NCBI GenBank assembly: GCA_003056285.1
Contig: NDWU01000013.1
Coordinates: 7,826-39,825 of the forward strand
From: Candidatus Terraquivivens tikiterensis
GTDB taxonomy: Archaea; Thermoproteota; Nitrososphaeria_A; Caldarchaeales; Wolframiiraptoraceae
Direction: 5' to 3'
DNA length: 32,000 nt
Both the position numbers and the translations under genes were made by a program. The number at the start of each line of letters is the position of its first letter. Position 1 is the first letter of the stretch. The notes below the pieces were generated by a model. It did not search any database and was not told the origin of the DNA. It saw only the letters and a program-made list of their open reading frames with translations. This document shows, piece after piece, positions 13,295-32,000 of the stretch.

Positions 13295-13295
13295 G

Positions 13296-14489
13296 TTAAG
13301 TAGAGGTTCGTAATGCTTTATTGCTTTCATTACCTCTACCTAACCCTTCCCTCTCGATCATCTCATCGAGGGCCTTCGGGGCGAACCCATGTCCCCACAT
13401 CCTGAGTATGTTTATGCATGCCACGAAGTGCCTATCCGCTTCGTAACCACAGTGTTTGCATCTAAAGACCTGCCCATTTGTCTTGGACAAACGCCCGCAT
13501 CTTGGGCAGGCCCTGCTTGTGTTCCTTGCCGGAACGTATTGCACTTTGTAGCCCAGCCATGCCATCTTGTACCCAATGAGGCTCTGGACTTTCCTGTACG
13601 GTAGCGACGCGACCTTGCGGTTCTTCCGCTTCGTACGTTTGTTTCTCGTGGCGTTATAGCTCAAGCCTTTAAGATTTTCAAATATGGGAGCAAGCCCTTC
13701 CTGGGATAGCTCTTTAACTATGCTCGTGGTTATCTTGTGGAGAATGTCGTTCACCCTTCTCCTCTCGCGCCTGGAGTACTTCTGCATGAGCCTCTTTGAT
13801 GTTATAGGTTTATGCTTTGAAAGGCTTTGGATCTTCCTGCGCTTCTCAAAGTAATGTACTCTGATTCCGTATAGCTTCTTTAAGTCGACCTTCCGATATT
13901 CTGCTGAGTCTCCTTTTACCTTAAGGAAGTCTATACTCATCAGGTTTACGTCGATGGAAGCATAGCCTATAGGAATCTTATCCTCGACTGCTCTCTTGAA
14001 GGTTACCATCGCCCTGTCCTCTAGTAGAGTTACCTCGCCTAAACTCAGCTCCCCATTCCTCCATGCATCGATGAATCTTTTCTGATATGAGCCTATTATT
14101 AGCGGAACCTCAACGTAACGATGCGGCATCGTCGTAATTACTATCCTATCTCCTTTGAATCGCATGAGCTCCTTCTGGAGCCTCATGGATAGGGCGTTGA
14201 AGGTCGGTGGATTGTTCGGGTCGGCCCTTCTCCTCTTAACAAGCCTTTTCCAGGAGCGGATTACGTTGCAGGCAACCCTAGCGGCCGAGATGCAGTAGTG
14301 GGTTGCGAAGCCGTACTTCTGCTTGAACTCCTCGTATAGGGCCCTCTCAACTTTCATAGGGGAGCTTACGTTGTGGCTTAGAGCATACTTTATGCATTCT
14401 TTCACCATATCGTTGAACGTTTGGAGCAAAGGCCTAACGTCGGAGCTATGCTTGAACGCTACCGCCTTTACGGCCTCCAACCTCCTCAC
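13296..14489 (-). CDS. tnpB: TnpB/OrfB RNA-guided-nuclease-type protein (IS200/IS605-IS607 accessory protein), apparently intact
   Basis: 397 aa. RuvC-I is ASIDVNL, RuvC-II is PIFENLKGL, RuvC-III is YEADRHFVACINI. Zinc finger is CPRCG...CKHCG. Confidence 0.9.
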   Translation of the reverse strand: MRRLEAVKAVAFKHSSDVRPLLQTFNDMVKECIKYALSHNVSSPMKVERALYEEFKQKYGFATHYCISAARVACNVIRSWKRLVKRRRADPNNPPTFNALSMRLQKELMRFKGDRIVITTMPHRYVEVPLIIGSYQKRFIDAWRNGELSLGEVTLLEDRAMVTFKRAVEDKIPIGYASIDVNLMSIDFLKVKGDSAEYRKVDLKKLYGIRVHYFEKRRKIQSLSKHKPITSKRLMQKYSRRERRRVNDILHKITTSIVKELSQEGLAPIFENLKGLSYNATRNKRTKRKNRKVASLPYRKVQSLIGYKMAWLGYKVQYVPARNTSRACPRCGRLSKTNGQVFRCKHCGYEADRHFVACINILRMWGHGFAPKALDEMIEREGLGRGNESNKALRTST

Positions 14490-14652
14490 CTTTCAGGATC
14501 CTTTCGATGTCGCTCCTGTAGTAGCGAAGCTTCCCGCTCGGAAGCCTTACAGCCCTTATCAAGCCCTTCTTGTACCAGCTCCACAGAGTCTTGTTGCTGA
14601 CCCTAAGTAGAGCCCTAGCCTCCTTAGGAGTAATGAGTTCCTCGTAAGCCAT
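14446..14652 (-). CDS. MerR/excisionase-type HTH protein, equivalent to the N-terminal domain of IS607 TnpA without a recombinase domain
   Basis: 68 aa: ITPKEARALLRVSNKTLWSWYKKGLIRAVRLPSGKLRYYRSDIERIL. The 3' end overlaps the tnpB start by 44 nt. No serine-recombinase catalytic motif follows. Confidence 0.7.
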   Translation of the reverse strand: MAYEELITPKEARALLRVSNKTLWSWYKKGLIRAVRLPSGKLRYYRSDIERILKGEEVGGRKGGSVQA

Positions 14653-14744
14653 TAAGGTAATATAGGAAACAAGTTTTATTTAAGCTTATTTATTCTGAAA
14701 ATGCTGAGAACGGCGCTACGGGATGAGATGCCTTCTTGCCGTTA

Positions 14745-14960
14745 GAAAAAGTTTCAGGATATGCACAAAGTCGTGATCCTATCGTAAAAAGCGCGGACAA
14801 AGCTTGGGATGTAGGGCCTTCCCCGTACGTATGACCCAAAGCTCGAAAGGGCCTGGGAGAACGTACGGGCGGGTTTGACCCGAAGGGAGCCAAGCCCTAT
14901 GAAATGCTCCCCAACGAGCCCGGAGGACTGGGCATCTAACCAGAAAAATGTAAAGCCCTC
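14745..14960 (-). ncRNA. R1: GC-rich structured non-coding element, paralog of R2 (26167-26452); function unknown
   Basis: The minus-strand core 14925-14803 aligns by eye at roughly 85% with 26262-26385. It has stems with wobble or compensatory changes and a CCC-UUCG-GGG type hairpin. Track ORFs here are similar to those in R2 in two frames at once, which indicates nucleotide-level rather than protein-level conservation. Confidence 0.45.
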
Positions 14961-15136
14961 TTCGCCCGGCCGAGCACAAAAAGAGCACACACCCATTAAA
15001 ACCCGCTCAGCTTAGATCTAACAAAACAAGGCTTATCTCACTTCCAACCAAGAGAGAAACCCAATGCATTGTTGATGGTATTACTTTTTTTATTTTTGGT
15101 AATACTTATATAGCCGACAACTTTTAGAAGTTTGGC

Positions 15137-15658
15137 ATGAGATTTGACACCAAAAGGGCAAGCATGATTGCTCTATTTACGGCGCTTATTTCAGTCTGTA
15201 GCGCTGTAGCTCATGTAATAGCTTGGGTCGGGCATCCCACAATAGGGGCAATAGTAGTAACTTTTCTTTATCTGACGGCCTTCGGCATCACAGGTAGAGG
15301 GGCTACAACGGTTATTGGTTTGCTCGTTGGTATAGTGAATAGTTTTATATTTGGTTCACCGTTGTCCGTTCCTGTGCATCTTGTTCGAGGTGCAATTTTC
15401 GACATTTTCTTTACCATAACCCATCACAGGTTATGCTGCCGAAAGTGTGCTATCGTGTCTTCCATGCTATCTTTTTACGTGACTATGGTTGTGATATTTG
15501 CGCTTTATACGCTTGTCGGGTTGCCATTCGCTTCGTGGGTTGTTTGGTTTGTTTTGGCTGGTATACCCAGCGTTCTCCTAACAATTCCTGGAGGGTTACT
15601 TGCGCTGAAATATAAGCAGACATTTCAACGGGTCGTGGGAGCATGGGCAAGTGCATGA
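15137..15658 (+). CDS. integral membrane protein, about 5 TM helices (possible substrate or metal uptake component)
   Basis: 173 aa and hydrophobic throughout. TACTTATATAG lies about 25-30 nt upstream of the ATG. The 3' end overlaps the cobN start by 16 nt. Confidence 0.6.
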   Translation: MRFDTKRASMIALFTALISVCSAVAHVIAWVGHPTIGAIVVTFLYLTAFGITGRGATTVIGLLVGIVNSFIFGSPLSVPVHLVRGAIFDIFFTITHHRLCCRKCAIVSSMLSFYVTMVVIFALYTLVGLPFASWVVWFVLAGIPSVLLTIPGGLLALKYKQTFQRVVGAWASA

Positions 15659-18600
15659 TAACCATGATCGGCTATCAGTTTAGACCCTGCTTATTGGAGG
15701 CTGTAAGAAAAGTTAATGATATCGTAGGAGGGGTTCTGGACTTCCGTTTTTACAACACCTACGATGTTGATGGGGAAGTGGTTGACGTTCAGAGGTTTGC
15801 TGAGGATTTAAGGCGTTCTCAGGTCGTTTTGATTGACGTTAGAGGCGGAGACCGTGTCAGCAGAATTATCTGTGGGGAGCTTAAGAATCTGAGGAACACC
15901 GTCGTTGTTTTCGTCGGAGGATCGTCAGAAATAATCAACCTTACTAGGCTTGGAAGCTTTTCCCTTCACAAATTTGCAAGTTTAAAGGAGAAGCCTCTAA
16001 TCGGGAGAATTTTCAAGGGAGGCAAGATGGATTATGGAGCGATTCTAAGGATGCGTGATAGGTTCGAGAAGCTTGGAGGCAAACTGCCAATCGGCATGCT
16101 TAAACATGCTAGGAACTACGCTCTGCTCCTGAAATACTATGACACCCCGACGCTTCAAAACTATTATGCGATGCTTCTACTTTTGCTGAAGGAGTATTGT
16201 AAGGTTAAGGTCGACGTCGAAATACCTGAGCCTACCGTCATGCCCCCTATGGGAATTATGGAATTCAAGACTGGAAAAATTTTTACAGATTCTCAAAGCT
16301 ACCTCCAATCGTATAGGTTCAGGGATCGACCCTTAGTTGGCATACTCTTCTATGGCGGTTACCACTACGACCAATCCTATCCAGCGGCGAAACTCCTTGC
16401 AGAGAAGCTTGAGGAACAAGGCTTAGGCATCATGCCTGTCTTCTGCTCCGATTTAAGGTATTATCTCGCCATAGAAAAGTTCATGCTTTTAGATGGGAAA
16501 CCCGTTATAGATGTTCTCATCGACCTTTTATGGTTTAGGCTGGCCGGGGGACCTATTGGCGGAGACCACAACATAACTAGAAGCGTCCTCACAAAGCTGG
16601 ATGTCCCTTGCTTGCACGGTATTCATCTATCGTCAAAAACTGTTGAGGAGTGGCTTGAATCGAGACACGGCATCCCTCCAGTAGAAACCGTTACAACCGT
16701 TATCCTGCCAGAACTTGACGGAAGAAACGAACCCATAATCACCCATGCAGTAAAAAAGAGGCTTTCCGAGGGCGTGAAGCTGGAGGAATACGTTGCCATC
16801 GGAGATCGTGTCGAACGGCTTGCACAGAGAGCTGCCAAGTGGGTTAGCTTGAGGAGGAAGCCGAACAGCCAAAAGAGGATAGCAATAATAATCTACAACT
16901 ACCCACCAGGGGAGGAGAACATTGGGAAGGCCGCTTATCTCAACGTCTTCGAAAGCCTCTCTAGGTTGTTAAAGGCTTTAATGGATAAGGGTTATAACGT
17001 AACCGGCGCACCTTCGGGCAGGGAGCTAAAGGATCTGCTAATCTCCAAAGGGGTTGTAAACTCTGGGGAGTGGGTGCAGCCATCGAGATTTGATGAGGCA
17101 TTCCTTGTTTCCGCCGAGAAATATGGCATGTGGCTTAGAAACCTCCCTGAGAAACCCCGAAATCAAATGCTGAAAGAATGGGGCAAACCTCCAGGACAAA
17201 TCATGGCGCATAATAACTCACTATTGATTCCTGGATTAACCTTCGGAAACGTGTTCGTAGGACTTCAGCCCACGCGCGGCGTTCACGAAGACCCATCCAA
17301 AATTTACCATGATAAGGATCTTCCACCCCACCACCAGTATGTTGCCTTCTACAGGTGGATAAGGGATGAATTCAAAGCTGACGCCATTATACATTTAGGA
17401 ACCCACGGCACGCTTGAATTTCTGCCTGGAAAGGAAATTGGCCTTTCATCTGAATGTTTCCCAGACTTGCTGATAGCCGACCTCCCCAACATTTACGTTT
17501 ACCATGCGGTCAACAACTCAGAGTCATCAATAGCTAAAAGGAGAAGCTACGCCTTAATAATAAACCACGCCAGCCCCCCTCATACGGATAGCGGCCTTCA
17601 TGGAGACTTCCAAGAAATTGAAAGGTTGACGGCTGAGTATTTTGATGCTTTGCAATACGGCGGGGAAAGGGCTAAAGAAGTAGCTAAAAAGATACTGGAA
17701 AAAGCGGGAAAGTATGGGCTTGGAGAGTGTGTTGAAGAGGTATATGATAAAATACAGGAGTTTAAGCGTTCAATAATTCCTAAGGGGCTACACGTTCTTG
17801 GAGATAAACCATCGTTAGACGACGCTATCACCTATCTAACCTTCCTGTCAAGGTATGATAGGGGCGAGATTAGCAGCTTACACAGGCTTATCATAGAGTC
17901 TGAAGGCTTAAATTATATTGAAGTTTTGGAGAAGCCGCATAAAATGGCTCCGGATGGGAGGACATACGCGAAAGTGCTGAGCGATGCGGAAGAAATCGTT
18001 AAGGAAATTTTAAGGGATTATCTGGTGAATGGTTCAACGTCAATGTTGAGAAACATCAACAAAGATGAAGCGATAAGGGCTCTGAATTTTCTGAAGAGAG
18101 TCTACGAAAGGATGATGATGTCAGATGAGATAGGCGCTGTTTTGGATGCCCTTGACGGAAGGTTCATTGAGCCGGGTCCAGGCGGGGACTTCGTTAGAAC
18201 CCCGGAAGTTTATCCCACTGGAAGGAACATGTACCAGCTTGACCCAACGAACATACCTACGGAAGTGGCTATGGAGAGGGGAAAGAAAATTGCTGATGAT
18301 TATCTTAAAAGCTTCTATAGGAGACATGGAAGATACCCTAGAGCAGTTAGCGTTGTTCTGTGGGCCTTTGAAACAATGAAGACCGGGGGTGAAACCCTGG
18401 CTGCGGTTTTCCACCTTCTAGGCGTGAAACCGGTTTGGAAGAGCCTGTACATTAGAGAATTAGAGGTTATTCCGCTCTCAGATCTCGGCAGGCCCAGGAT
18501 AGATGTTGTGGTTACCATCTGCGGCATCTTCAGGGACACATTCTACAACGTTGTAGAGCTTTTGGACAAGGCTGTACGCTTGGTAGCAGGGCTTAAAGAG

Positions 18601-19386
18601 CCCGAAGACATGAACTTTGTGAGGGCCCACGTCAGAAAAATGGAAAGCGTCCACGGCGAAAACGCATCCCTCAGAGTGTTCGGCCCTCCTGAAGGCCACT
18701 ACGCCACAAGCCTAACCTCGATAATAGAGTCGTCTAATTGGAGAAGCGAGGCTGAGCTGGTAAACGCTTATCTGGAAAGCATGAAATTTGCTTACGGAGA
18801 GAGAAAGCGAAACGTAGAGTCGAGGAAGCTGCTAAGCTCCCTACTTTCAAACGTTGAGGTCGTAACGCAGGTAAGAGACAGCGTTGACTACGAAATAACG
18901 GATTTAGACCACTACTACGAGTTCCTCGGCGGTTTAGCAAAAGCTGTTCAAAGCGAAAGCGGAAAAAGGCCCATGGTTCTAGTTGCGGATACCACGAGAG
19001 AACTTGTAAAGGTGGAAGGTGCAGAGGAATCCATAAGAAGGGGAATAGTAACAAGAACGGCTAACCCTAGATGGCTAGACGCCATGATCGAGCATGGCTA
19101 CAACGGCGTAACGAAGATAGCTGATAAGGTTGAGTATATGATAGGGCTATCCGCAACAATAGGGGGCATTGAAGACTGGATGTGGAACATGGTAGCAGAA
19201 AACACGGTGTTTGATAGGGAAAGGTCGGAAAGAATGAAAAATGTAAACATATTCGCTTATCGCAAGCTCATTAAAAGATTACTTGAAGCTGCAAAGCGTG
19301 GATACTGGAAAGCTGACAAAGAAATAGTTGAAAGGCTCGAGGAGGAATATTTAAGGACCGAAGAATTGCTTGAGGAGGAAATATGA
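15643..19386 (+). CDS. cobN: CobN/ChlH-family large chelatase subunit
   Basis: 1247 aa. Length and conserved blocks are typical of CobN/Mg-chelatase H (e.g. [41 protein letters not shown]). The exact start is uncertain (ATGs at 15643, 15655, 15664). Confidence 0.9.
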
Positions 19387-19402
19387 CAACCGGGGTGTAA
19401 AT

Positions 19403-21358
19403 ATGCCACACCACATAAGATTTGTTTTCCCGTTCACGGCGATAGTCGGTCAGGAAAAAATGAAGAAGGCTTTGCTATTAAACGCCATAAACCCGAGGAT
19501 AGGCGGAGTTTTAATACGTGGCCAGAAGGGGACGGGGAAATCCACGGCTGTAAGGGCTCTAGCCGACCTCCTCCCCGAAATAAAAGTTGTAGAGAATTGT
19601 CCATTCAACTGTAACCCAGACAATCCGCTTGAAATGTGTGATTCCTGCTATGAGAGGTACACTAGAGGAGAGGAGCTTAAATGGATTAAAAGGAAGGTTA
19701 AAATAGTGAATTTGCCGCTCAACGCAACTGTTGATAGAGTTGCGGGGACGCTAAACATCGAGAGGGCGTTAAAGGAAGGAATAAAAGCCCTGGACCCGGG
19801 GCTCCTAGCCGAGGCGAATAGGGGAATACTCTATATCGATGAGGTTAACCTGCTGGACGATTATGTGGCTGATATATTGCTTGATGTGGCTGCAAGCGGC
19901 GTAAACATTGTTGAAAGGGAAAACGTTTCGGTTGCCCACCCAAGCCGCTTCATCCTCATAGGCACAATGAACCCTGAAGAGGGGGAACTTAGACCGCAAC
20001 TACTAGATAGGTTCGGACTTCAAGTGGATGTCGACACAATAACCGACCCCGCCCAACAGGTTGAGATCGTAAAGAGGGTTGAGGAATTCGAATCAGACCT
20101 AGCAGGTTTCATGGCTAAATATGAGATGGAGCAAAAAAGTTTAAAACTTAGAATTGAGAAAGCCCAGAAGATCCTCCCCAACGTCCAAATAGCCGAGGGG
20201 CTCCTCTACGAAATTGCAAATGTTTGCTCAAAACTTGCTGTGAGCAACAGGGCTCCAATAGTTGTGGCTAGAACGGCCAAAACCCTTGCAGCCTTCTCAG
20301 AACGGGACAACGTTAACAAAGACGACGTTTTAGAGGCTATGGAGCTTGCGCTACCCCACAGAATGAGGAAAAAGCCCTTTGAAAGGCCATACCTACCACG
20401 CCAAAAACTGGAAGAATTGATCTCAAAAAACAATTGTGAAAACCACACAGTGAAAGATGAAGGCTCAAATTTTGAGAAAAGCAGTAAACCTTCAGGAGAG
20501 TTGTTGTTCGATGCAAGTTCTCCAACCCACATAAACCTTGAGGGCTGTAGAAGGTGGGACTCCCACGTCGGGAAAAGCGGGAGATCCGTTACCGCCAAAA
20601 TCATAGGTGGCGGAAGGGGAGCCTATGTTTACAGCGTAATCCCAAAAGGCAAAGCTTCCGACGTTGCCATCGATGCGACAATAAGAGCTGCAGCTGCTCG
20701 AGCCATAGGCTGCAAGGAAGCAACGCTGAAAATCAGCGATGAAGATATCCGTGAAAAAGTTAGGCGTATTAAAACCTCATCGTTAATAATTTTAGTTGTA
20801 GACGCAAGCGGCTCAATGGCTGCTCGAAAAAGAATGGAGGTCGCAAAAGGGGCTACGTTGGGGCTTTTAAATAACGCCTATACGCGCCGGGACAAAGTTG
20901 CCTTTATAGCGTTCCGAGGAGCCTCATCTGAACTTCTGCTTCCCCCAACGAGCAGTTTAGACCTTGCGCATGCGGCTTTAAAAGAACTGCCCACAGGAGG
21001 GAGAACCCCGCTCTCCCATGCACTGCTCACCACCTTAAACATGATCCAATCCGAAAAAATGAAAAATACAATCAGCCTCAAACCATCAATAGTGCTGATC
21101 ACGGATGGAAAAGCAAATGTTTCCCTGGGTGGAGAGATCAGACAAGAAATCGTGGAATTGTGCGGAAAACTAAAAGAAACAGGAGCCCAACTAACAGTCA
21201 TAGATGTCTCAGAAGATCCTTTCACCCCAAACTATATCGAAGACATCATAAAAGCCGCTAACGCAAAACACGTAAAAATAAGAAACCTTACAGACGATAA
21301 CCTTCAAAAAATAATAACAGCAAACATGCTTTCCAAAGACACACCTCTTCAATTTTAA
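19403..21358 (+). CDS. fused ChlI-ChlD type chelatase ATPase (AAA+ module plus C-terminal vWA/MIDAS domain)
   Basis: Walker A is GQKGTGKST and Walker B is [12 protein letters not shown]. The C-terminal vWA has MIDAS motif [12 protein letters not shown] 19403 is preferred over the track's TTG at 19370 because GGGGTG (SD-like) lies 6-7 nt upstream and it follows the cobN stop (19384-19386). Confidence 0.88.
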
Positions 21359-21368
21359 TGTATTTTGA

Positions 21369-21507
21369 ATTTTACTGGTAAATTATGCGTAAATTCACTC
21401 CCTGCACTCCAATTTTAGGTACGATTCGAGCTTATTTTAGCTAAAGAAACCCAATTTGGAATATTGTGGGTGGGGCTAAAATTTCAGCACAAATTTACCA
21501 GTAAAAT
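21369..21507. repeat. 139-bp element bounded by a perfect 16-nt inverted repeat
   Basis: ATTTTACTGGTAAATT (21369-21384) pairs with AATTTACCAGTAAAAT (21492-21507). An inner inverted repeat is AATTTTAG (21411-21418) with CTAAAATT (21476-21483). It begins 10 nt after the chelatase stop. Confidence 0.7.
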
Positions 21508-22174
21508 ATGTCGTCGCATGTGGTTGCTTTTAAGACTTTTGACGTAACGGCATATTTTAAAATGTTATGCGGCGATTAATAGCTGTTTGTGGAATCAAAA
21601 TTGGTTGAGCGAGTATATGTAGACTTTTTGATGATCAATGAACAGGCGAATTGGAACAGAATCAAATGCGTTTGTTGATATTGTTGATGCTGCTTTGCGC
21701 GGTAATTGTAAGTTCTGATGAGTTTGTTACACCACCATCAGAGGTTGTGTTTAAGATTATGTGGGGTAAGCATTTTCTAGTTCATGTGCAAAATCTCAAA
21801 AGAGATTAGAAAAATAAAAATACTAGTTATCATCAACACTAAAACACCTTAAACCCTACGCAGAATCAACCACAAACTCTTAGCAGAAGCCCTCATAGAC
21901 TACTACCTAGGACCCTCCCTCAGAGCCCCTCACCAAAATGCTGCTTTAGCCGCTGCATATAAAATACGTGATAAATTACAAGGACTAAACGTAATTATAA
22001 TGGTCACAGGTGAAAATACTGAATAAACAATGGTGTTGTTAAGTCTGAGTATTATTGGTGGAAGTCTGAGGAGAGGAATGCGCAATAAGGATTTGTTGAG
22101 GAATAGTGATCTTGAGGTTTGGAGAAGGTTTCATCGTAGATATTTGAGAGCGTTGTTTAAGAGTGGTGAGAGGG

Positions 22175-22591
22175 TCATCTTTTATACACTATTACTTCTA
22201 ATCCTCTTATTCTGTTGAAATCTTTAATGTTTCCTGTAGCTACAGCGTAATTATTTTCTCTTGCTATGATTCCTATTAGTAGGTCTCTTACATCTATTAT
22301 TAGTCCTAAGGATGCAAGATACGCCATTTCTTCACCAGCTTTAATTGCTTCTTTAAAAGTTAAAGCCAATACTACTATTGCTGCACTTAACTCTTCCACA
22401 TCTCTAAGTCTTCTTATTTTATAAGCTCCCCATGAAAGTTCAAAAATATTTATAACTGTTGTTCCTACGTCAATCCCAGATTCTACAAAACTTTTTATAA
22501 ACTTTATAGCACTTTCTCTACCTCTAAGGAAATCTATTAAGATATCAGTGTCTAAAATTACTCTTTTGCTGGTAATTTCCATTCTTTCCAA
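22175..22591 (-). CDS. vapC: PIN-domain ribonuclease toxin VapC
   Basis: 138 aa. The N-terminal VILDTDILIDFL carries the acidic residue, with further conserved D/E positions, and it lies downstream of an antitoxin ORF. The start is uncertain (22591 or 22582). Confidence 0.85.
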   Translation of the reverse strand: MERMEITSKRVILDTDILIDFLRGRESAIKFIKSFVESGIDVGTTVINIFELSWGAYKIRRLRDVEELSAAIVVLALTFKEAIKAGEEMAYLASLGLIIDVRDLLIGIIARENNYAVATGNIKDFNRIRGLEVIVYKR

Positions 22592-22785
22592 GCTCTCCTG
22601 ATTTCTTTTAAGAAATCCTCAATTTCTGTATCATTTATGTCATGCCAGATACCAGCTAGATCCATCAAACCACGATGCTTTTTTACAAGCCTAAGTATTA
22701 CATCGGAAAAACTTTCGCCAGGTCTTTTAATTCGCAGAAGAGCCTCATATGCTTCAAGAGAGACGGTAATAGTTTTAACACCCAA
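22558..22785 (-). CDS. vapB: VapB-type antitoxin (small DNA-binding domain of the TITVSxExYExL...ESFSDVI type)
   Basis: 75 aa: MGVKTITVSLEAYEALLRIKRPGESFSDVILRLV. It overlaps the vapC 5' end. Confidence 0.75.
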   Translation of the reverse strand: MGVKTITVSLEAYEALLRIKRPGESFSDVILRLVKKHRGLMDLAGIWHDINDTEIEDFLKEIRRAWKEWKLPAKE

Positions 22786-22834
22786 ACTATTTTCACTAAA
22801 ATATTAAAACATATAAACACACTTATAAATATTT

Positions 22835-22847
22835 CACTTTTAAAGTG
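22835..22847. promoter_or_regulatory. perfect palindrome CACTTTTAAAGTG upstream of vapB (candidate operator)
   Basis: 13-nt palindrome about 50 nt upstream of the vapB ATG, inside an AT-rich region with TATA-like strings. Confidence 0.3.
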
Positions 22848-22984
22848 TATTGTCAAAGAAATAGCCCTGCCCCTGAAGGGTGAAGCTTTCAGTTGTAATA
22901 CATTACTTCTCAGACATCATTATTCATGCTTAAAAGAAGAAACTTTTACTACATCTGTAAAGTTATTGACTGAATGGGCCTCTT

Positions 22985-23220
22985 TTAGGAGAGGTTCTCA
23001 TTAATCCTGTTATTATGTTAACAATTTTCAATGCTTGTTTAGCTTCATCTTCGCTAATATTTTCATCAACATAATCGGACTTTTCCTAATTCATAGAGTA
23101 TTCTAAACAAACTAGCTTCATTCTTAAAACCTAAGATTTTCTATAACATCTGCTAACTTATCGTCACGCTTGCTGCAAAGTATGCTGCTGATGCGCATTT
23201 GTTATAAAATTTAAACCTGG
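22985..23220 (-). pseudogene. possible HEPN-domain gene remnant with frameshifts and stops
   Basis: Minus-strand fragments ...ILYELGKVR... and ...SDYVDENISEDEAKQALKIVNIITGLM... lie in different frames and are interrupted by stops. They resemble the C-terminal part of HEPN proteins. Weak call. Confidence 0.3.
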
Positions 23221-23331
23221 TAATCCTTGCAACATAAGAGGTGATGGTGGTGTAACAAACCTGGAGTACAGCTTTACGTGCCCTGCATCCATAGTAAGCT
23301 AATAAATAAGCAATCATTAAGGGTTACATAA

Positions 23332-23405
23332 GGGCCGGTAGCTCAGCCTGGAGGAGCGCTCGGTTTGCACCCGAGAGGTCCGGGGTTCGAATCCCCGCCG
23401 GTCCA
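23332..23405 (+). tRNA. tRNA-Ala (anticodon UGC), no encoded CCA
   Basis: Hand-folded 74-nt cloverleaf. Acceptor GGGCCGG/CCGGTCC with the G3:U70 alanine identity pair. D stem GCTC/GAGC. Anticodon stem CTCGG/CCGAG with loop TTTGCAC. T arm CGGGG-TTCGAAT-CCCCG. Discriminator A. A TATA-like TAATAAATAAG lies about 25 nt upstream. Confidence 0.95.
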
Positions 23406-23424
23406 TCGATTTCTATCAGGACCG

Positions 23425-23470
23425 CCCAGAAAACCACGCCCTTTAAGGGTGGGCGAGCGTGCAAAACCCA
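23425..23470 (+). repeat. third copy of the hairpin motif found at the left ends of the mini-elements at 26814 and 30673
   Basis: AACCACGCCCTTTAAGGGTGGGCGAGCGTGCAAAAC resembles ATCCCGCGCCCTTTATTGGTGGGATGGGAGCGGGCAAAG (26826-26864) and ATCCCACACCATTCATGGGTGGAATAAAAGCGAACAAAG (30688-30725). Confidence 0.45.
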
Positions 23471-23614
23471 AAGGACGATGAATGTTTTAACGTAGTGCTG
23501 GCTAACCTGTTTTTCAAGATGAACATAAAACAGCTATAGCGATAAATAGAAATGTGCATAACTTAGCCGTGGCAGCTCACGCGAACATTGCATGCAATTT
23601 GGGGTGTACTCGCC

Positions 23615-24184
23615 ATGGAGAAAAGAAACTTTGTAGAGCCCTTGCGGATGGGCAGGGTTGGCAGGACGCTTGTACTGTTGAATGTCCTACTCGTGGCATC
23701 TTTTTTCCTGACGTCATTATACTATTGTTCATTGCTTCCGGAAGAGGTCCCGATCCATTGGAACCTTAGGGGCGAGATCGATGCGTACGGTGCTAAAACG
23801 ACAGTATTTGTGCTTGCCGCCGTGCTATCCATTGCCAACATTCTGATAATATTGATTACGACCTTCAGGTTTAAGATAATCAACAGGTATCCGTATCTAA
23901 TAAGCATGCCAGCCATAGCGTTATTGATCGGCAGCGATAGGTTGAGTCCGAAGGAAAAGGGCAGGTACGTGAACAGGGTATTCGAGGTCTTTTTGGCAAC
24001 TGGGTGCATTGCTGGAGCGTACCTTCTGGGTTTGCAGTACGTCATCTTCGATGCTACCGTCAGTTTCAGTCCCTTACCTCATTGGTTCGTATGGTACGTG
24101 TTCGGCGGCATACCTTTTTTACTCGCACCGGGACTCTTGTTATGTAGGAAAATCTATAGAGACCTGAGAACCGTTGTCGGATAG
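23615..24184 (+). CDS. DUF1648-like membrane protein
   Basis: LPEEVPIHWNLRGEIDAYGAK after the first TM helix is the typical DUF1648 signature, followed by 3-4 more TM helices. The ATG at 23615 is preferred over the TTG at 23588. Confidence 0.65.
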   Translation: MEKRNFVEPLRMGRVGRTLVLLNVLLVASFFLTSLYYCSLLPEEVPIHWNLRGEIDAYGAKTTVFVLAAVLSIANILIILITTFRFKIINRYPYLISMPAIALLIGSDRLSPKEKGRYVNRVFEVFLATGCIAGAYLLGLQYVIFDATVSFSPLPHWFVWYVFGGIPFLLAPGLLLCRKIYRDLRTVVG

Positions 24185-24424
24185 TTAACATTCTCTGCCC
24201 TAAAAGGCTTCATGGATTGCTTTCGGGTAGCGGAAACTCCCCACATCCTTGGCTCTTCCTCAATTGCCCATTCGGTGCTTTTAGCTTTCCGCCATATATC
24301 GGGCACTCATTTGCCCGAGCCTTCCTCGCCTGTCTTTGGTCTGGAGCCTTATTCGGGCTTTGGACGTCCAGACGCATCCAAAAAGAACCGTTCGAGAAAA
24401 GTTAACTATTTAGAAACTGCTGAC
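24181..24424 (+). ncRNA. R3: structured non-coding element related to R1/R2; function unknown
   Basis: It lies in a 358-nt spacer without a credible ORF. A perfect 9-bp long-range helix pairs ATAGTTAAC (24181-24189) with GTTAACTAT (24401-24409), extended by TTCTC/GAGAA. An inner helix pairs TGGATTGC (24213-24220) with GCATCCA (24373-24379). There is a hairpin CGGGCA-CTCATT-TGCCCG. It shares the blocks CATGGAT, GGAAAnCCCCnCATCC, TTTGGACGTC and GAAACTGCTGAC with R2. Confidence 0.4.
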
Positions 24425-24542
24425 GAACCCTCGGTATGTAGCGGTAATGGACGCTTATAAGGTGCCTTATATAGTTTGAGGATAGAAGGTTGATTAGATC
24501 GGGTCAGCCCATTTCTATAAAACGTGAACGGTGAAAGGCTAA

Positions 24543-25382
24543 GTGTCGTTTGAGATCCAAGAGCTACCCGACGTCATAAAAGTGTTTATCTTGCTTAACT
24601 TGAGAAAAAGGACGAATACGCATAAGGCCCTCCTCAAAAAGAAGATCGACAAGGTTTGCGCCAATAGTATCTGCGTCGAGATGAGCGACTTGGATGAGGC
24701 CATAAGGGAGATGGTCTCCGAAGGCCTAATAATCGAGGAGGGCGATTATATCCGGCTAACGCCTCAAGGCCAGGTTTTGAGCAAAGAGTGGAAGAACCTT
24801 CTGCTGAAGAGAGAACCGATACTCGAGGTCGTGGCTGGCTTAGTCGACGGTTCCATAACGGGACTCGTCGTGGTCCTTTCCGTCTTCATATCCGGCCTAG
24901 TCGCAAAGGCCGTTACGTTCGCCGCTCTTTTGACGTTGGTGGCCGTGGCCATAACGAACTTTTCCAGCTTTCTTCTAGGTGGAATAACGGAGGATTTAGC
25001 TGACATAAAGTCTCTCCAGGCCTTGATAAGATTCAGCCTGAGCGACATTCCCGACAAGGACGAACGTAACAAATCCCTCATGCTAGTTAAAAGGCTGTTC
25101 ACGCTACTTCATAAGGAAGTAAGGCGGACTAATTTGTACGCTGCCCTTGTATGCGGTCTAACGACTTTTCTGGCAGGTAGCATACCCATAATCGCATACA
25201 TCGCCCTGCCAAGGCCGATAAACCTACTCGTAGCGCTTGGAATCGTCGGCGTAGTGAACGCATACCTCGTTAAGTACCGATCCAAGAAATCCCGGACGGG
25301 CTGGAGGAAAATACTGCTGGAAACACTGCTCATAGTCGCGGTCGCTACCATAGCCTCGTTGCTCCTCGGCAACGTAGCTTAG
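24543..25382 (+). CDS. VIT1/CCC1-family membrane protein with an N-terminal winged-helix-like domain
   Basis: GTG start with GGTGA 10 nt upstream. N-terminal residues 1-80 are soluble and wHTH-like (...EAIREMVSEGLIIEEGDYIRLTPQG). Then comes EVVAGLVDGSITGLVVV (VIT1-type DG motif) and about 5 TM segments. Confidence 0.6.
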   Translation: MSFEIQELPDVIKVFILLNLRKRTNTHKALLKKKIDKVCANSICVEMSDLDEAIREMVSEGLIIEEGDYIRLTPQGQVLSKEWKNLLLKREPILEVVAGLVDGSITGLVVVLSVFISGLVAKAVTFAALLTLVAVAITNFSSFLLGGITEDLADIKSLQALIRFSLSDIPDKDERNKSLMLVKRLFTLLHKEVRRTNLYAALVCGLTTFLAGSIPIIAYIALPRPINLLVALGIVGVVNAYLVKYRSKKSRTGWRKILLETLLIVAVATIASLLLGNVA

Positions 25383-25433
25383 TCCAGTTTGTTCACCTAT
25401 AATCCGAGCGTCTTTCTTCAAGCCATCCTAAAC

Positions 25434-26150
25434 CTACTCTTCGAACCTTATTTCCCTAGTGATAACTTCCTTGGCGTGCTTTATAACGACCTCAGGTGGC
25501 TTTCTGCCCAAAAACTTGGCCACCTCATCCCTCAGGAGCTCGACGGGCTTCGAGGCCAGCGAATCGAACACGCCCTTCACGGAGCCGTAGGTCTTGAGAA
25601 GAGCCTTGGCAAGGCTCGGCCCGACCCTAGGGAGCCCCTCCACGACGTAGATGGCCTGCTGCTCCGGCGTCATGGAGGCAGAGCTTACCCTGAGCCTTAT
25701 GTCCCTGGGCTCCGGTTTCTCAGAAAGGCTCTTGTATTTGGTTATTATGTAAGCTCCCGTCCCCCTCCAGTCGGGTGTGTGGACGACTGCTACCTCGTAG
25801 CTCCTTTGAATGCTCTCCACCGCCCTGTAGACGCTGGCCTCGTTCCATCCTGTCATCCTCCTTATAGCGCCCAGCCACCCCTCGATCACCAGGATCTTCT
25901 CGAAGGAATCCACCTCAGAGAACCTATCCAGCTGGGACCATATCCTACCGCGGCCCGATTCGTCGGGCTTCAGGGAATTCAGAAGGTCGGTCACGGTCTT
26001 CCTCTCTATCACGGCCATCCCCTCAGCGCCGTCGAGGAGGTAATCGCCCACCTCCAAGTTCTTCGTGCCGACCTGCTGGTCCAGAACGCTCGTCAGCATC
26101 TCCAGTATTTTCTTGCTCTTGGATGCCTCCTTGGTGTCTACGAAGATCAT
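25434..26150 (-). CDS. xpf: XPF/ERCC4-family structure-specific endonuclease, crenarchaeal short form (nuclease plus HhH2)
   Basis: ERCC4 motif VGDYLL...VIERKTVTDLLNS and C-terminal (HhH)2 EGLPRVGPSLAKALLKTYGSV. 238 aa, as in the Sulfolobus/Aeropyrum short XPF. Confidence 0.88.
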   Translation of the reverse strand: MIFVDTKEASKSKKILEMLTSVLDQQVGTKNLEVGDYLLDGAEGMAVIERKTVTDLLNSLKPDESGRGRIWSQLDRFSEVDSFEKILVIEGWLGAIRRMTGWNEASVYRAVESIQRSYEVAVVHTPDWRGTGAYIITKYKSLSEKPEPRDIRLRVSSASMTPEQQAIYVVEGLPRVGPSLAKALLKTYGSVKGVFDSLASKPVELLRDEVAKFLGRKPPEVVIKHAKEVITREIRFEE

Positions 26151-26166
26151 ACGAGCCTACCATCAC

Positions 26167-26452
26167 GCCGTTAGAATTAAACGTTTAACCACAGTAGATG
26201 ATGGGGTTCTGGGCCAAGCATGGATACGTATCACGCTCTAGCCCTTGGGCCTCATCGCCTTCCTCCGGTCCATCGGAGGCATTTCATAGGGCTTGGCTCC
26301 CCTTCGGGTCAAACCCGCCGTACGTTCTCTCCCAGGCCCTCTCGAGCCAGGATCATACGCATGGGGAAAGCCCCGCATCCTAAGGTGCCTCTCCCTTGGG
26401 TATTTATCGTACTACCTTTCGGACGTCAAATTTGAAACTGCTGACAACGGCG
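26167..26452 (+). ncRNA. R2: GC-rich structured non-coding element, paralog of R1 and related to R3; function unknown
   Basis: A terminal 7-bp helix pairs CGCCGTT (26167-26173) with AACGGCG (26446-26452). Hairpins are CCTCCG-GTCCAT-CGGAGG (26262-26279), CCCC-TTCG-GGG, CCGTACGT...ACGCATGG and GGGG-AAAG-CCCC. A TATA-like ATTAAACGTTTAAC lies about 20-30 nt upstream of the GC-rich part. Confidence 0.45.
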
Positions 26453-26503
26453 CTTTATCCACGTGAGCGGAAACCCGCGTTCTCCGCGGTGAACGCTGCG
26501 AAG

Positions 26504-26516
26504 AAAGCTTATATTC
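26504..26516 (+). promoter_or_regulatory. BRE/TATA-like AAAGCTTATATTC upstream of the SRP-like RNA
   Basis: Its centre lies about 27 nt upstream of the point where GC-rich sequence begins (about 26539). Confidence 0.4.
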
Positions 26517-26540
26517 TCTTTATCATCTTGTTTATTTTGC

Positions 26541-26807
26541 GTAGGGCTGGAGCGGCCCGAGGTCAAGCCTGCTGAGACCGGACCTCCGTAACCCGCCTTC
26601 CGGACGCGGTATACGGAAAGGGCCTCGCCGGGAGAGGCCTGCGCTCCGGGTGGACGGGAACCGAGCCCGGTCGCTGAGGCAGGAAGCCCAATGGCCCTAA
26701 GGCCTTGGGCAGCTCGTGTAGGAGCGGTGCCGGCATGACCGCGGTGGCGATGAAGAGCCAGAGTTACGCGGACCTGTGAAGAGGAGGCATTTGTCGGAGC
26801 CACCTTT
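26541..26807 (+). ncRNA. ffs: GC-rich structured RNA of about 265 nt, most likely SRP (7S) RNA
   Basis: There is no plausible ORF; the 125-aa minus-strand ORF is Ala/Gly/Arg/Pro-rich GC artefact. Nested stems are dense: GGGC-TGGAGCG-GCCC, GGCCTC-GCCGGGA-GAGGCC, GCCCAATGGCC-CTAA-GGCCTTGGGC, GCGGT...ACCGC, and CCGGG-TGGA-CGG-GAA-CCG-AGC-CCCGG (helix-8-like internal loop). The 5' GGGCTGG and CCGTAACC resemble the SRP Alu-domain UGUAAC region, and the 3' CCTGTGAAGAG resembles the helix 5 3' strand. RNase P was not excluded. Confidence 0.5.
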
Positions 26808-26813
26808 GACGAT

Positions 26814-27157
26814 ATGTGAGGGAAATCCCGCGCCCTTTATTGGTGGGATGGGAGCGGGCAAAGTTTATAGCGGTATACGATGAAACAAAGAAAAAGCTTG
26901 AAAAGCTGAAGGTCCACCCAGGAGAACCCTACGACGACGTTGTAAAAAGTCTGATCGAGAAGTGCGGAAATCCCAGCTGAGCTACAAGCTCTACCATAAG
27001 CCTGGGCATGATGGAAGGTTACCCGAAACCTTTAGCCCTGCATGATAGTGATGAGCGGATGGTAGGCCTGATCCGCCTGCTTATATGGAGCCCCTACTGG
27101 TACTAGCAGGCTCCGTCTTTGGACAGGCCCGCTGGCTTATAGCCTTGGGTAGCTCAA
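26814..27157 (+). mobile_element. mini-element A: decayed internal-deletion derivative of a TnpB-type IS (left-end hairpin, promoter, remnant small ORF, remnant tnpB start, conserved 3' end)
   Basis: It is collinear with 30673-31204. The left ends match (ATGTGAGGGAAATCCC...CAAAGTTTATA). The small-ORF remnant ...AVYDETKKKLEKLKVHPGEPYDDVVKSLIEKCGNPS (stop 26978-26980) has no start codon. QLSYKL is a remnant of the TnpB N-terminus. The 3' block 27017-27157 aligns with 31038-31204. Confidence 0.6.
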
Positions 27158-27204
27158 AACTGTGAAAATCAGGAGCAGGGTAAGAAAAAGTTGGTTTTTG
27201 GAAC

Positions 27205-27531
27205 CTAAGCGCCTAGTATGAAGAACGCGATGACTATGCCGTAGATGGCAAGCGCCTCGGCGAACGCAGCGACTATTATCGCCGTCGTCCTTATCTCCGG
27301 CCTCTCGGCAGCGGCCGCCAAGCCAGCGGAGCCAGCCCTTGCGATGCCGAAGCCTGCAGATACGACCGCGGCGATGAACGCTATGGCCGCAGAAAGTGTC
27401 TTCGGGAATAACTCCGGTGCCTCCTGCGCGGCGGCCACAGGCGTCGTAAAAGATGCCAGCAGAGAAAGCACGAGCAGGAGCCCGAACGCCAGTTGACCGA
27501 TGACGTTTAACCTTAACACCTTTAAGCGCAC
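27205..27531 (-). CDS. atpK: A/V-type ATP synthase proteolipid subunit K (c subunit)
   Basis: Two-helix proteolipid with the conserved carboxylate in AAFAEALAIYGIVIAFFILGA and the loop ERPE. GTG start. Confidence 0.88.
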   Translation of the reverse strand: MRLKVLRLNVIGQLAFGLLLVLSLLASFTTPVAAAQEAPELFPKTLSAAIAFIAAVVSAGFGIARAGSAGLAAAAERPEIRTTAIIVAAFAEALAIYGIVIAFFILGA

Positions 27532-30621: not shown

Positions 30622-30753
30622 CCCTGACAATCCGATGGATACCTACCGAAAAAACTTTAGTAAGTTTTAATAATGTGAGCGGGGAAATCCCACACCATTC
30701 ATGGGTGGAATAAAAGCGAACAAAGTTTATATAAGAACTTATACTCTTTTTAT

Positions 30754-30894
30754 ATGGTTGCTATGGAAGAATATACAACGATTCAAATAAGAAAAGAAAC
30801 GAGGGAAAAGTTGAAGGCTCTTAGAATAACAAAAAGAGAGTCTTATGACGAAATCATAAATAGGTTGATTGAGAAATGCAAAAAGTCCAGCTGA
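30754..30894 (+). CDS. 46-aa small DNA-binding-type ORF (VapB-antitoxin-like N-terminal domain) carried by mini-element B
   Basis: MVAMEEYTTIQIRKETREKLKALRITKRESYDEIINRLIEKCKKSS. It has the same TI.v..E....L......ES..D.I..L pattern as the vapB product at 22558-22785 and the remnant in element A. It overlaps the tnpB-fragment start. Confidence 0.5.
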   Translation: MVAMEEYTTIQIRKETREKLKALRITKRESYDEIINRLIEKCKKSS

Positions 30895-31010
30895 CCTACA
30901 AGTTCAGGCTTTACCCGAAGAAGGAGCAAGAGGAACGGCTACTAGAGACCTTAAAGCTGTGCAGTCAGACCTACAATCACTTTCTAGCACAGTGGAACGG
31001 GAAGGAGAGA
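30876..31010 (+). pseudogene. tnpB: tnpB 5' fragment (N-terminal ~45 codons only)
   Basis: MQKVQLTYKFRLYPKKEQEERLLETLKLCSQTYNHFL is a classic TnpB N-terminus. The rest of the 107-aa track ORF runs through the non-coding 3' block and shows no TnpB features. Confidence 0.6.
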
Positions 31011-31282
31011 ATTCCGAGCGGCACCCCGGAAGGGCTAGGCTACGAAAACCCTTATAGGGACTGGATTTCTGCATGTAGAATAAAGATGAGGGGATGGGGC
31101 AGCCCTGATTCGCCTGCTGAGGTGGAGCCTCTACTGGTAGGGATACCAGCAAGCTCCATCTTTGAAGCAGGAAGCCCGCTGGCTTTCAGCCGTGGGTAGC
31201 TCACCGAGAATCCTTGAGCAAGAAAAGCACGCAGAAAGCATTGGATGCCGTACTGGACCCAGCATCTTTGCGCTAGGCCATA

Positions 31283-32000
31283 TTATTCCATCAGTAAACT
31301 TGTCGTCCAGTAAGGGTTCTGAGCTATGTAATCTTTAATAGACATTACATAGCTCTTGGGACTCATCAGCCTTGGAGCCCTCTTGGGTTCATCGGACCCC
31401 TCATCAGCCTCCTCCCCTGTCAGGGTGAACCCTCTCCAAGCATTTATGAGCTCATCGAAGAGCCTTGGGCTTGGAGAAAGACCCTCCATCTTAAGGTATA
31501 GGTTTATTGCCCCTTTCGGGGCATTAACCATACCACACCTGGAGCACCTTTTGGTTGAATTGTATGGGTTGAGGGTTTTAATGCGAGATTTGTAGCCCAT
31601 CATTACTATCAGTTTCTTCCAATCGCTTTTTGCAATGTTTCTGTTATGTTCCTTGGAATTGTTGAACATTCTTTGCTTTTCAAGACTTTCAAATCCGTGC
31701 ATGTAACCTTTGAACTCTCTGCTTAGAGACGTCGTTACCTTATGCAGAAAATCAATTGCCCTGTTTCTCTCCCTTCTGGAATACTTAGCTAGGATTCTTC
31801 TTAGCGATGGCTTCTTCGAAGCTTTGCTCTGGAGCCTCTTCCTCTTAAGCTCATATGCTCTATGTATGTGGAATAGCTGTGAAAGGTCAACTCTAATCCA
31901 TCCAAGTTTAGGACTGAACCCATCTATGCTCTTCTCATTACTATCCCACGCAATCTTATCATGAATATTCTTTTCTTTATTACTGAACCTGAACGTGATT
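31283..32000 (-). CDS. tnpB: second TnpB-family protein, N-terminus outside the window, C-terminal nuclease/zinc-finger region degenerate
   Basis: The minus frame is open from 32000 down to the stop at 31283; the track shows only the part after the first Met. It reads ...IAWDSNEKSIDG (RuvC-I), ...KYSRRERNRAIDFLHKVTTSL..., MHGFESLEK (RuvC-II) and CSRCG (first zinc knuckle). The second CxxC and the DRDxNAAxNI RuvC-III motif are missing. Confidence 0.7.
   Translation of the reverse strand, partial: ITFRFSNKEKNIHDKIAWDSNEKSIDGFSPKLGWIRVDLSQLFHIHRAYELKRKRLQSKASKKPSLRRILAKYSRRERNRAIDFLHKVTTSLSREFKGYMHGFESLEKQRMFNNSKEHNRNIAKSDWKKLIVMMGYKSRIKTLNPYNSTKRCSRCGMVNAPKGAINLYLKMEGLSPSPRLFDELINAWRGFTLTGEEADEGSDEPKRAPRLMSPKSYVMSIKDYIAQNPYWTTSLLME

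Follow-up and report, generated by a model that had tools for sequence, protein, structure and literature searches.

R2, a noncoding stretch upstream of xpf in Candidatus Terraquivivens tikiterensis, is likely a gene-less derivative of an IS607-family TnpB insertion sequence

We analyzed a 32,000-nucleotide (nt) stretch of the genome of the archaeon Candidatus Terraquivivens tikiterensis (here called the window), with a focus on R2, a noncoding stretch upstream of the nuclease gene xpf. R2 had been predicted from the DNA letters alone to be a strongly structured RNA element that forms a family with two further stretches of the window, R1 and R3. We conclude that R2 is probably a gene-less miniature derivative of an IS607-family insertion sequence (IS) that carries tnpB, located at 26204-26451 on the minus strand. 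Both of its ends match those of full-length copies of this group, its parts follow the same architecture, its 3' half is homologous to their omega-RNA region, and the element is missing from the orthologous site of relatives. R2 is therefore to be counted among the already known kinds of mobile-element debris, and the evidence rules against a new RNA class. The new structured RNA family of the original prediction did not hold up, since its members proved to be the terminal parts of an IS family, an outcome which the prediction itself had named as speaking against it, along with an origin from miniature inverted-repeat transposable elements (MITEs).

Ends, limits and content of R2

A 23-nt consensus of the left end (LE), GCCGTWGYYAGCAGTTTCAAAAT, was derived from metagenomic full-length copies. 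Within the window it matched at just two sites, with a chance expectation of 0.00: at 26429-26451 on the minus strand, with a single mismatch, and at the LE of IS#1, an intact element of the same group, with 3 mismatches. The right-end (RE) consensus, TTRRCYCAGAACCC, was found without mismatches at 26204-26217 (minus strand) and at the RE of IS#1, and with 1 mismatch at the RE of IS#2, the 3' part of a second element. Pairs of LE and RE in the correct order and orientation were formed in the window by IS#1 (1421 nt), by R2 (240 nt between motif starts) and by 4633-5299 on the plus strand (667 nt), which we judged to be a chance match. Among the fetched loci the same motif pair marks 10 full copies of 1387 to 1442 nt. 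The full copies start with GCCGTWGYCAGCAGTTTCA and finish with ...CTCAGAACCC, their RE boundary reading ...CAGAACCC, and their flanks diverge immediately outside both termini; upstream of GCCGT, the flanks of 10 or more copies diverge at once. From the LE and RE matches on one strand, the limits of R2 are therefore 26204-26451 and not 26167-26452, as had been predicted. The features of R2 and its surroundings are as follows.

26204-26451, minus strand: R2 proper, 248 nt, with left end, internal remnant, omega-RNA-like scaffold and right end
26429-26451, minus strand: LE terminus of R2, GCCGTTGTCAGCAGTTTCAAATT, 1 mismatch to the 23-nt consensus
26204-26217, minus strand: RE terminus of R2, TTGGCCCAGAACCC, 0 mismatches to the consensus
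26204-26351, minus strand: omega-RNA-like scaffold of R2, with the helix GGGUUU/AGAACCC and the terminal stem GGGCUAGAGCGUG...CAUGCUUGGCCC, stopping at the RE boundary
26184-26203, minus strand: flank directly 3' of the RE, part of the conserved upstream/promoter region of xpf
26261-26384, no strand assigned: core common to R1 and R2, 82.8% identity
25434-26150, minus strand: xpf (ERCC4 nuclease; Pfam ERCC4 and orthologous loci), its upstream region abutted by the right end of R2

R2 thus combines the LE (∼23 nt) with a short piece of the interior and with the last ∼150 nt of the 3' end. Its open reading frames (ORFs) are only 46 to 71 amino acids (aa) long and matched no NCBIfam family, leaving no capacity for a transposase or TnpB, and the predicted lack of a credible ORF was borne out. 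Coding origins of R2 and R1 were also considered and rejected, as the ORFs in R1, R2 and R3 have an odd composition and no family matches, and between R1 and R2 there are indels that shift the reading frame. A tblastn search with 157 TnpB proteins gave no significant match in R1 or R2. At the ends of R2, GCCGTTGTCAGC... and ...CCCAGAACCC, we found neither terminal inverted repeats (TIRs) nor a flanking direct repeat.

The RE boundary could also be compared with relatives that lack the element. In loci L021-L029, whose XPF proteins are 85 to 88% identical, a spacer of 108 to 130 nt lies upstream of xpf and R2 is absent. Homology of the window to three of these loci (L023, L025 and L028) runs from xpf to ∼26191-26203 and then ends, one or two bases at most from the RE boundary that the IS family predicts. 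The ∼37 nt at 26167-26203 are conserved xpf upstream DNA and, because they are kept in relatives lacking R2, lie outside it. This bears on the 7-bp terminal helix that had been proposed to close the element: the complementarity exists, shifted by one base (26166-26172/26446-26452), but its 5' arm is flanking DNA and its 3' arm is the IS LE terminus GCCGTT.

Omega-RNA scaffold and informative strand

The two TnpB elements of the window have the following features.

13286-14714, minus strand: IS#1, intact element of 1429 nt, with limits set by the motif scan and by reference to L001, L002 and L004
14446-14652, minus strand: HTH_17 ORF of IS#1, 68 aa (Pfam/NCBIfam)
13296-14489, minus strand: tnpB of IS#1, 397 aa (Pfam/NCBIfam)
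13286-13420, minus strand: omega RNA of IS#1 (138.7 and 99.9 bits with the two covariance models described below)
31314-32000, minus strand: IS#2, 3' part of a second IS607-family element that runs off the window, with RE GCTCAGAACCC at 31314; found by tblastn

For the helix-turn-helix (HTH) ORF of IS#1, NCBIfam gives a match to its IS607 transposase model that covers model residues 1 to 50, and full copies of the IS#2 family (L121-L124) carry a gene with MerR-HTH and Resolvase domains before tnpB and have the same kind of ends; the group therefore belongs to the IS607 family. Homologues of the IS#1 TnpB (∼70% identity) are found in metagenome-assembled genomes (MAGs) of Bathyarchaeia, Nitrososphaerota, Methanomethylicia and Nezhaarchaeales, always with a small HTH ORF in front, and IS#1 represents a widespread subgroup in which the catalytic domain of the recombinase has been lost. 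No complete tnpA was found in the window. The TnpB of IS#2 lacks ∼19 residues (the second CxxC pair and the region of the RuvC-III Asp) that are present in the homologues examined and, judging from its sequence, is probably nuclease-dead or a pseudogene. The omega-RNA region of IS#2 is the closest in-window relative of the 3' half of R2.

Analysis of the 3' ends of 12 IS#1-like copies with RNAalifold revealed a long-range helix (GGGUUY/RAACCC), a CCCUC/GAGGG hairpin and a long terminal stem, with 7 compensatory pairs. A first covariance model (CM), made from 12 sequences that include the IS#1 of the window, found the tnpB 3' end in 67 of the 84 fetched loci. The second, broader CM was made from 67 sequences of fetched loci only, and neither model contains R1, R2 or R3. 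In the alignment of these 67 sequences, which is fitted to the model and holds 61 distinct sequences (loci L001-L004 and L040-L121), 93% of cells were paired, compared to 70.6% in shuffles, and 26 of 31 pairs were compensatory; controls with slid positions collapsed. Both the long-range helix and the terminal stem covary across the family. This conserved fold at the tnpB 3' ends is the omega RNA of this archaeal IS607/HTH-TnpB group, for which Rfam 15 contains no matching model.

Both models were then run over the window with filters off. The first CM scored IS#1 at 138.7 bits, IS#2 at 33.9 bits and R2 at 15.3 bits (26204-26334, minus strand; E = 0.047). With the broader CM, IS#1 scored 99.9 bits, IS#2 45.3 bits, R3 27.7 bits (24171-24266, minus strand; E = 1.9e-5) and R2 14.7 bits (26204-26351, minus strand; E = 0.034). 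The match in R2 covers the full model, stops exactly at 26204 and has both the long-range helix and the terminal stem, with an insertion of 40 to 50 nt in the middle hairpin, where IS#2 also has one. On the minus strand, the core common to R1 and R2 reads as a GGATGCGGGG box, an extra hairpin of ∼50 nt, and GGGTTTGACCCGAAGG...GAAATGC. The last ∼113 nt of R2, from GGGTTT to the RE, are 64 to 67% identical to and co-linear with the omega-RNA regions of IS#2, L120 and L121, and local alignments of R2 scored well above shuffles (z of 8.1 for L120 and 6.7 for IS#2). A standard omega-RNA locus would overlap tnpB; R2, where this gene is absent, is instead an orphan or mini-element.

R2 had been read on the plus strand and called strongly structured. 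On that strand, however, 26167-26452 folded with a z of only -1.21, no better than shuffles, 20 of 200 of which were as good. The same stretch on the minus strand reached a z of -2.91 and R2 proper a z of -2.03, and the minus strand is the informative one. The hairpins that had been named are present in the sequence (CCCCTTCGGG near 26299-26308 and GGGGAAAGCCCC at 26364-26375), as is AGGGCTT (26288-26294) opposite AAGCCCC (26368-26374). The predicted repeat of the core on the other strand was likewise recovered, blastn aligning 26261-26384 (plus strand) with 14927-14803 (minus strand) at 82.8% identity over 128 columns (E = 3.8e-26; nhmmer E = 1.7e-18); a general repeat scan of the window recovered just 51 nt of it. 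R2 is thus, as had been proposed, noncoding, possesses a genuine paralogue on the opposite strand at 14.8-14.9 kb and encodes RNA-type structure. The suggestion that differences between R1 and R2 preserve pairing fared less well, since two sequences cannot pick a strand or a fold: RNAalifold gave -28.6 kcal/mol for the minus strand and -26.7 kcal/mol for the plus strand of the two-sequence core, which is indecisive.

Rfam and ARAGORN searches of the whole window found one curated RNA, a tRNA-Ala at 23332-23405, which was also the only match at gathering thresholds, and the Rfam scan that the original prediction had proposed as a check returned nothing at R1, R2 or R3 at E values up to 5 to 10. 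No group I intron appeared in the Rfam scans. A permissive Rfam scan of 23000-27400 found no match at R2, at R3 or at the neighboring GC-rich stretch 26541-26745 (plus strand), which had been described as resembling the RNA of the signal recognition particle (SRP); its only product was a sub-threshold C/D-box match. The latter (26746-26800, plus strand) resembles a C/D-box small RNA, with 25.1 bits for Rfam sR14 (gathering score, 38; E = 9.5e-4). The SRP-like designation of 26541-26745 found no support, with no Rfam match at any threshold tried; this stretch folds with a z of -1.46, is non-syntenic with relatives and has a sequence resembling a TFB recognition element and TATA box, AAAGCTTATAT (26505-26516), ∼25 nt upstream.

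It could be argued that R1, R2 and R3 are stand-alone structured noncoding RNA genes of a new class, transcribed at R2 from the plus strand. Such genes would fit the lack of Rfam matches, the 83% conservation of a core whose surroundings have diverged between R1 and R2, and some R1/R2 differences that produce G-U rather than A-C on the plus strand (GGGG/CCCC versus GGGG/CCCU). We nevertheless consider them highly improbable. The plus strand is no more stable than shuffles (z of -1.2), and it is on the other strand that an IS607-family LE and RE bound R2; the proposed 5' end falls into flanking DNA conserved in R2-free genomes, and R2 itself is missing from the orthologous locus of relatives. 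Furthermore, covariation cannot be established from two sequences, and R3, described below, has only the IS terminus in common with R2 and is unambiguously the remnant of a TnpB element. The original prediction could not assign the three stretches to any RNA class, and indeed no Rfam family matches them; they can, however, be placed as TnpB-less IS607-type derivatives that keep the LE, the omega-RNA scaffold and the RE.

R1, R3 and the rearranged surroundings

The two stretches that had been grouped with R2 differ in their relation to it.

14738-15004 (end approximate), plus strand: R1, a decayed relative of R2, with a core homologous to that of R2
24171-24430, minus strand: R3, a 260-nt mini-element of a sister TnpB subfamily, with LE GGGTTCGTCAGCAGTTTCTAAATAGTTAAC, a TnpB zinc-finger remnant, an omega-RNA scaffold and RE ...TTAACTATCCGACAACGG

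R1 lies head-to-head with IS#1, with 23 nt between the two LE termini. Its LE is degenerate (GCCGTTAGAAAAAGTTTCA, 13 of 19 positions by eye) and its RE ambiguous, being either GGCCGAGCAC near 14976 or ATTAAAACCC ending at 15004. We also considered R1 as the left end of IS#1 and rejected this, because R1 is oriented the other way and lies beyond the LE boundary of IS#1 (14714).

R3 is unambiguously a remnant of a TnpB element. Its LE matches that of the L050/L084 subfamily, and its RE, ...CCGACAACGG, is identical to the RE of 11 full copies whose flanks diverge at this point. With nhmmer, R3 matched L050 (E = 6e-9) and ∼40 further loci, at both of its ends; the profile hidden Markov model (HMM) detected it with an E value of 2.3e-7, and alignments of half-elements gave z values of 20 and 7.8. 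The zinc-finger remnant reads CPIYGGKL..., and tblastn found weak matches to the C terminus of TnpB (E = 0.05 to 0.4). Because part of its terminal stem is deleted, R3 is probably dead as a guide RNA. Contrary to the prediction, R3 does not share the core of R2: their direct similarity amounts to one 15-nt block, the common IS LE terminus. R3 is therefore related to R2 only at the level of the IS family, as an analogous mini-element from a sister subfamily.

R1, R2 and R3 all lie at boundaries of rearrangements or insertions, as expected for IS-derived DNA, and the window is rich in IS607/TnpB material (IS#1, IS#2 and two TnpB N-terminal fragments). R3 and IS#1 are, like R2, missing from L025. 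In the window, 13287-24466 forms a block of 11.2 kb that replaces 1.75 kb (two genes) of L025, with IS#1 at one edge and R3 at the other. It contains IS#1, R1, CobN/ChlD-type chelatase genes of lower GC content, an AT-rich part at 21.4-23.3 kb, the tRNA-Ala, a DUF1648 gene and R3; in L025, the tRNA-Ala stands directly before the promoter of a VIT1-like gene. The right end of IS#1 (13286-13294) lies inside the last 9 nt of an epimerase ORF (12395-13294), and that of R3 (24171-24184) covers the final 14 nt of the DUF1648 ORF (23588-24184), so that both elements supply stop-proximal codons of a host gene.

Beyond the LE of R2 the window is also non-syntenic and contains IS remains, in which a small ORF and an N-terminal piece of TnpB are present in degenerate form; a better copy of them is found at 30682-31200. 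This better copy (plus strand) comprises a promoter-like 50-nt repeat, a small ORF of the ribbon-helix-helix (RHH)-like type and the TnpB N-terminal fragment (NF038281; E = 1e-6), stopping near the right end of IS#2; the degenerate second copy of the unit is at 26820-27160 (plus strand), just past R2. A 3.6-kb contig (L039) from another sample, SRR17863203, in which DNA of the same organism is present, ends at ∼27110 and 30724 of the window, adjoining these repeats.

These surroundings make it possible, though not probable, that R2 is a full-length IS607/TnpB copy that decayed in place, by internal deletion and/or recombination between copies, and now marks a rearrangement breakpoint. Synteny breaks at R2 and is not resumed on the LE side, where the next 700 nt hold the IS debris with the degenerate TnpB N-terminal copy at 26820-27160; R1 adjoins the 11-kb replaced region; and other copies of the mini-element were not found in the collections searched. 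On the other hand, the LE and RE of R2 are nearly perfect (1 and 0 mismatches), and R1 and R2 have the same layout, with 66 and 68 nt, respectively, between the LE and the GGATG box. This shared layout and spacing is easier to explain by one already-miniature ancestor than by two independent deletions.

The interpretation of R2 as a miniature IS607-family derivative also has to be weighed against several observations that do not favor it. The CM scores of R2 are weak (∼15 bits, with roughly calibrated E values of 0.03 to 0.05), and a probably spurious match at 17934-18040 reached 11.9 and 13.3 bits. At this latter site, which lies inside the CobN gene (plus strand), both CMs align the GGATG box and a few closing pairs only, and we took it as a false positive that indicates the noise level. 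An iterated nhmmer profile HMM of TnpB 3' ends detected R3 and scored R1 and R2 no better than shuffles. R1 has degenerate ends and a nonsignificant CM score (5.4 to 6.5 bits). The flank at the LE of R2 is non-syntenic with relatives, so that filled and empty sites can be compared on one side only.

Two further points of this kind concern the core common to R1 and R2. No full-length parent carrying it and no further copies were found among GTDB genomes, JGI metagenomes, IMG/VR and 85 TnpB loci, collections that do not include the source genome itself; within the window there are two copies. Searches of GTDB genomes with an exact 18-mer of the core gave 16 bacterial matches, which were due to chance, as checked by blastn. 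Two core patterns gave 0 matches and 9 chance matches in IMG/VR, and a codon-degenerate pattern of 31 to 32 nt that fits both R1 and R2 gave 0 matches in JGI metagenomes. Single-sequence nhmmer searches with R2 and R1 against all fetched loci (85 TnpB loci) yielded nothing significant. Moreover, the core is 83% identical between R1 and R2, compared to ∼50 to 55% elsewhere, which neutral decay of one miniature ancestor fails to explain. The higher conservation of the core could reflect inheritance from related parents, gene conversion or selection on an RNA; the first of these is possible because the core is the most conserved part of the tnpB 3' end of the family.

Possible origin and function, and relation to known elements

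Taking R2 as a miniature derivative, it may have arisen by internal deletion of a full copy with the serine-recombinase gene tnpA and with tnpB. In full-length copies, the 3' region retained in R2 overlaps the end of tnpB and encodes the omega-RNA scaffold up to the RE. The stems of R2 would represent the omega-RNA fold rather than an independent RNA gene. Any mobility of R2 would presumably be provided in trans by an IS607 serine recombinase recognizing the shared ends. If transcribed, the R2 RNA would, by analogy with TnpB elements (PMC10705468, PMC10055086), carry a guide copied from the flank, running from 26203 to 26184. A compatible TnpB acting in trans could then use this RNA, cut the R2-free allele and restore the element. 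Such a homing or retention mechanism has been shown for IS605 and IS607 elements (PMC10055086, PMC10690162).

Of the two states, non-autonomous relic and active guide-RNA gene, we judge the former to be the likelier for R2. We consider it unlikely that R2 is a live, orphan gene for an omega RNA that is expressed from the minus strand and taken up in trans by a TnpB from elsewhere in the genome, for self-retention or after co-option by the host. Such a gene would fit the intact ends, the presence of the long-range helix and the terminal stem, and a core in which R1 and R2 are much more alike than in their other parts; gene-less elements that resemble palindrome-associated transposable elements (PATEs) and need TnpB in trans have been described in bacteria (PMC10055086). 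The fit of R2 to the family model is, however, weak, with an insertion of 40 to 50 nt. Among the TnpB proteins of the window, the single intact one is of another subfamily, with a scaffold of its own that scores 100 to 139 bits compared to 15 for R2, while the TnpB of the nearest subfamily in the window, that of IS#2, is without the zinc-finger pair and the RuvC-III Asp. R1, in addition, has lost RE-proximal parts that a guide RNA would need. A more specific proposal, that the core of R1 and R2 is under selection and that R2 yields an orphan omega RNA, enlarged by an expanded domain, which a TnpB from elsewhere in the genome uses in trans, be it as a selfish guide-RNA-only element or as a guide co-opted by the host at the xpf promoter, seems to us slightly less likely still.

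The closest described parallel to R2 is provided by the PATE-like minimal IS200/IS605 elements of Geobacillus stearothermophilus, which have no protein-coding genes and encode omega RNAs (Meers et al., PMC10055086). Like these, R2 is gene-less, keeps the LE and RE of full TnpB elements of the same genome together with an omega-RNA scaffold that spans the RE, and would need both a transposase and TnpB in trans. PATE-like elements nevertheless belong to the IS605 branch, with a Y1 HUH transposase, subterminal DNA hairpins and a defined target-adjacent motif (TAM), whereas the ends of R2 and R3 are of the archaeal IS607 type, which is associated with a serine recombinase. For R2 and R3, our analysis identified no palindromic ends, TAM or mobilizing transposase.

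IS607 elements have no inverted repeats and produce no target-site duplications (TSDs), and they use TnpB and omega RNA for retention (Zedaveinyte et al., PMC10690162). R2 resembles IS607 TnpB elements in having neither TIRs nor a TSD and in its omega-RNA scaffold spanning the RE, but it differs from them in lacking both tnpA and tnpB; of TnpA, the IS#1 subgroup retains the HTH part alone. Elements with tnpB are often non-autonomous (PMC10705468). Classical MITEs are, like R2, short noncoding and non-autonomous IS derivatives at variable sites. They have TIRs and a TSD, however, both of which are missing in R2, where the 7-bp complementarity pairs the flank with the LE. R2 is thus of MITE-like origin, yet strictly speaking neither it nor R3, which likewise has no TIRs and no TSD, is a MITE.

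In archaea, RNAs from the 3' end of tnpB are represented by the sotRNAs and other sense-overlapping RNAs of IS1341-type tnpB genes in haloarchaea. These arise from the region that is kept in R2 and R3, but they lie inside full tnpB genes and in a different archaeal phylum, and we liken them to R2 and R3 by description only.

Our analysis turns an apparent unknown RNA family into annotated mobile-element debris and prevents a false call of a noncoding RNA. The IS origin also accounts for the position of the three loci at synteny breakpoints of this archaeal genome, the TnpB and XPF relatives of which are found in Nitrososphaerota-type MAGs. An initial reading of the window as Thermococcales DNA with a tRNA-integrated virus was abandoned when the relatives of its proteins proved to be of Nitrososphaerota/Bathyarchaeia type. 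As a by-product, we obtained, for a widespread archaeal group of IS607/HTH-TnpB elements, the terminal sequences and an omega-RNA model with covariation support, which lets full, HTH-only and gene-less members be recognized in MAGs of hot-spring archaea. Should R2 be expressed and loaded in trans, it would represent an archaeal guide-RNA-only element of the IS607 branch, a kind of element that has so far been discussed mainly for bacterial IS605.

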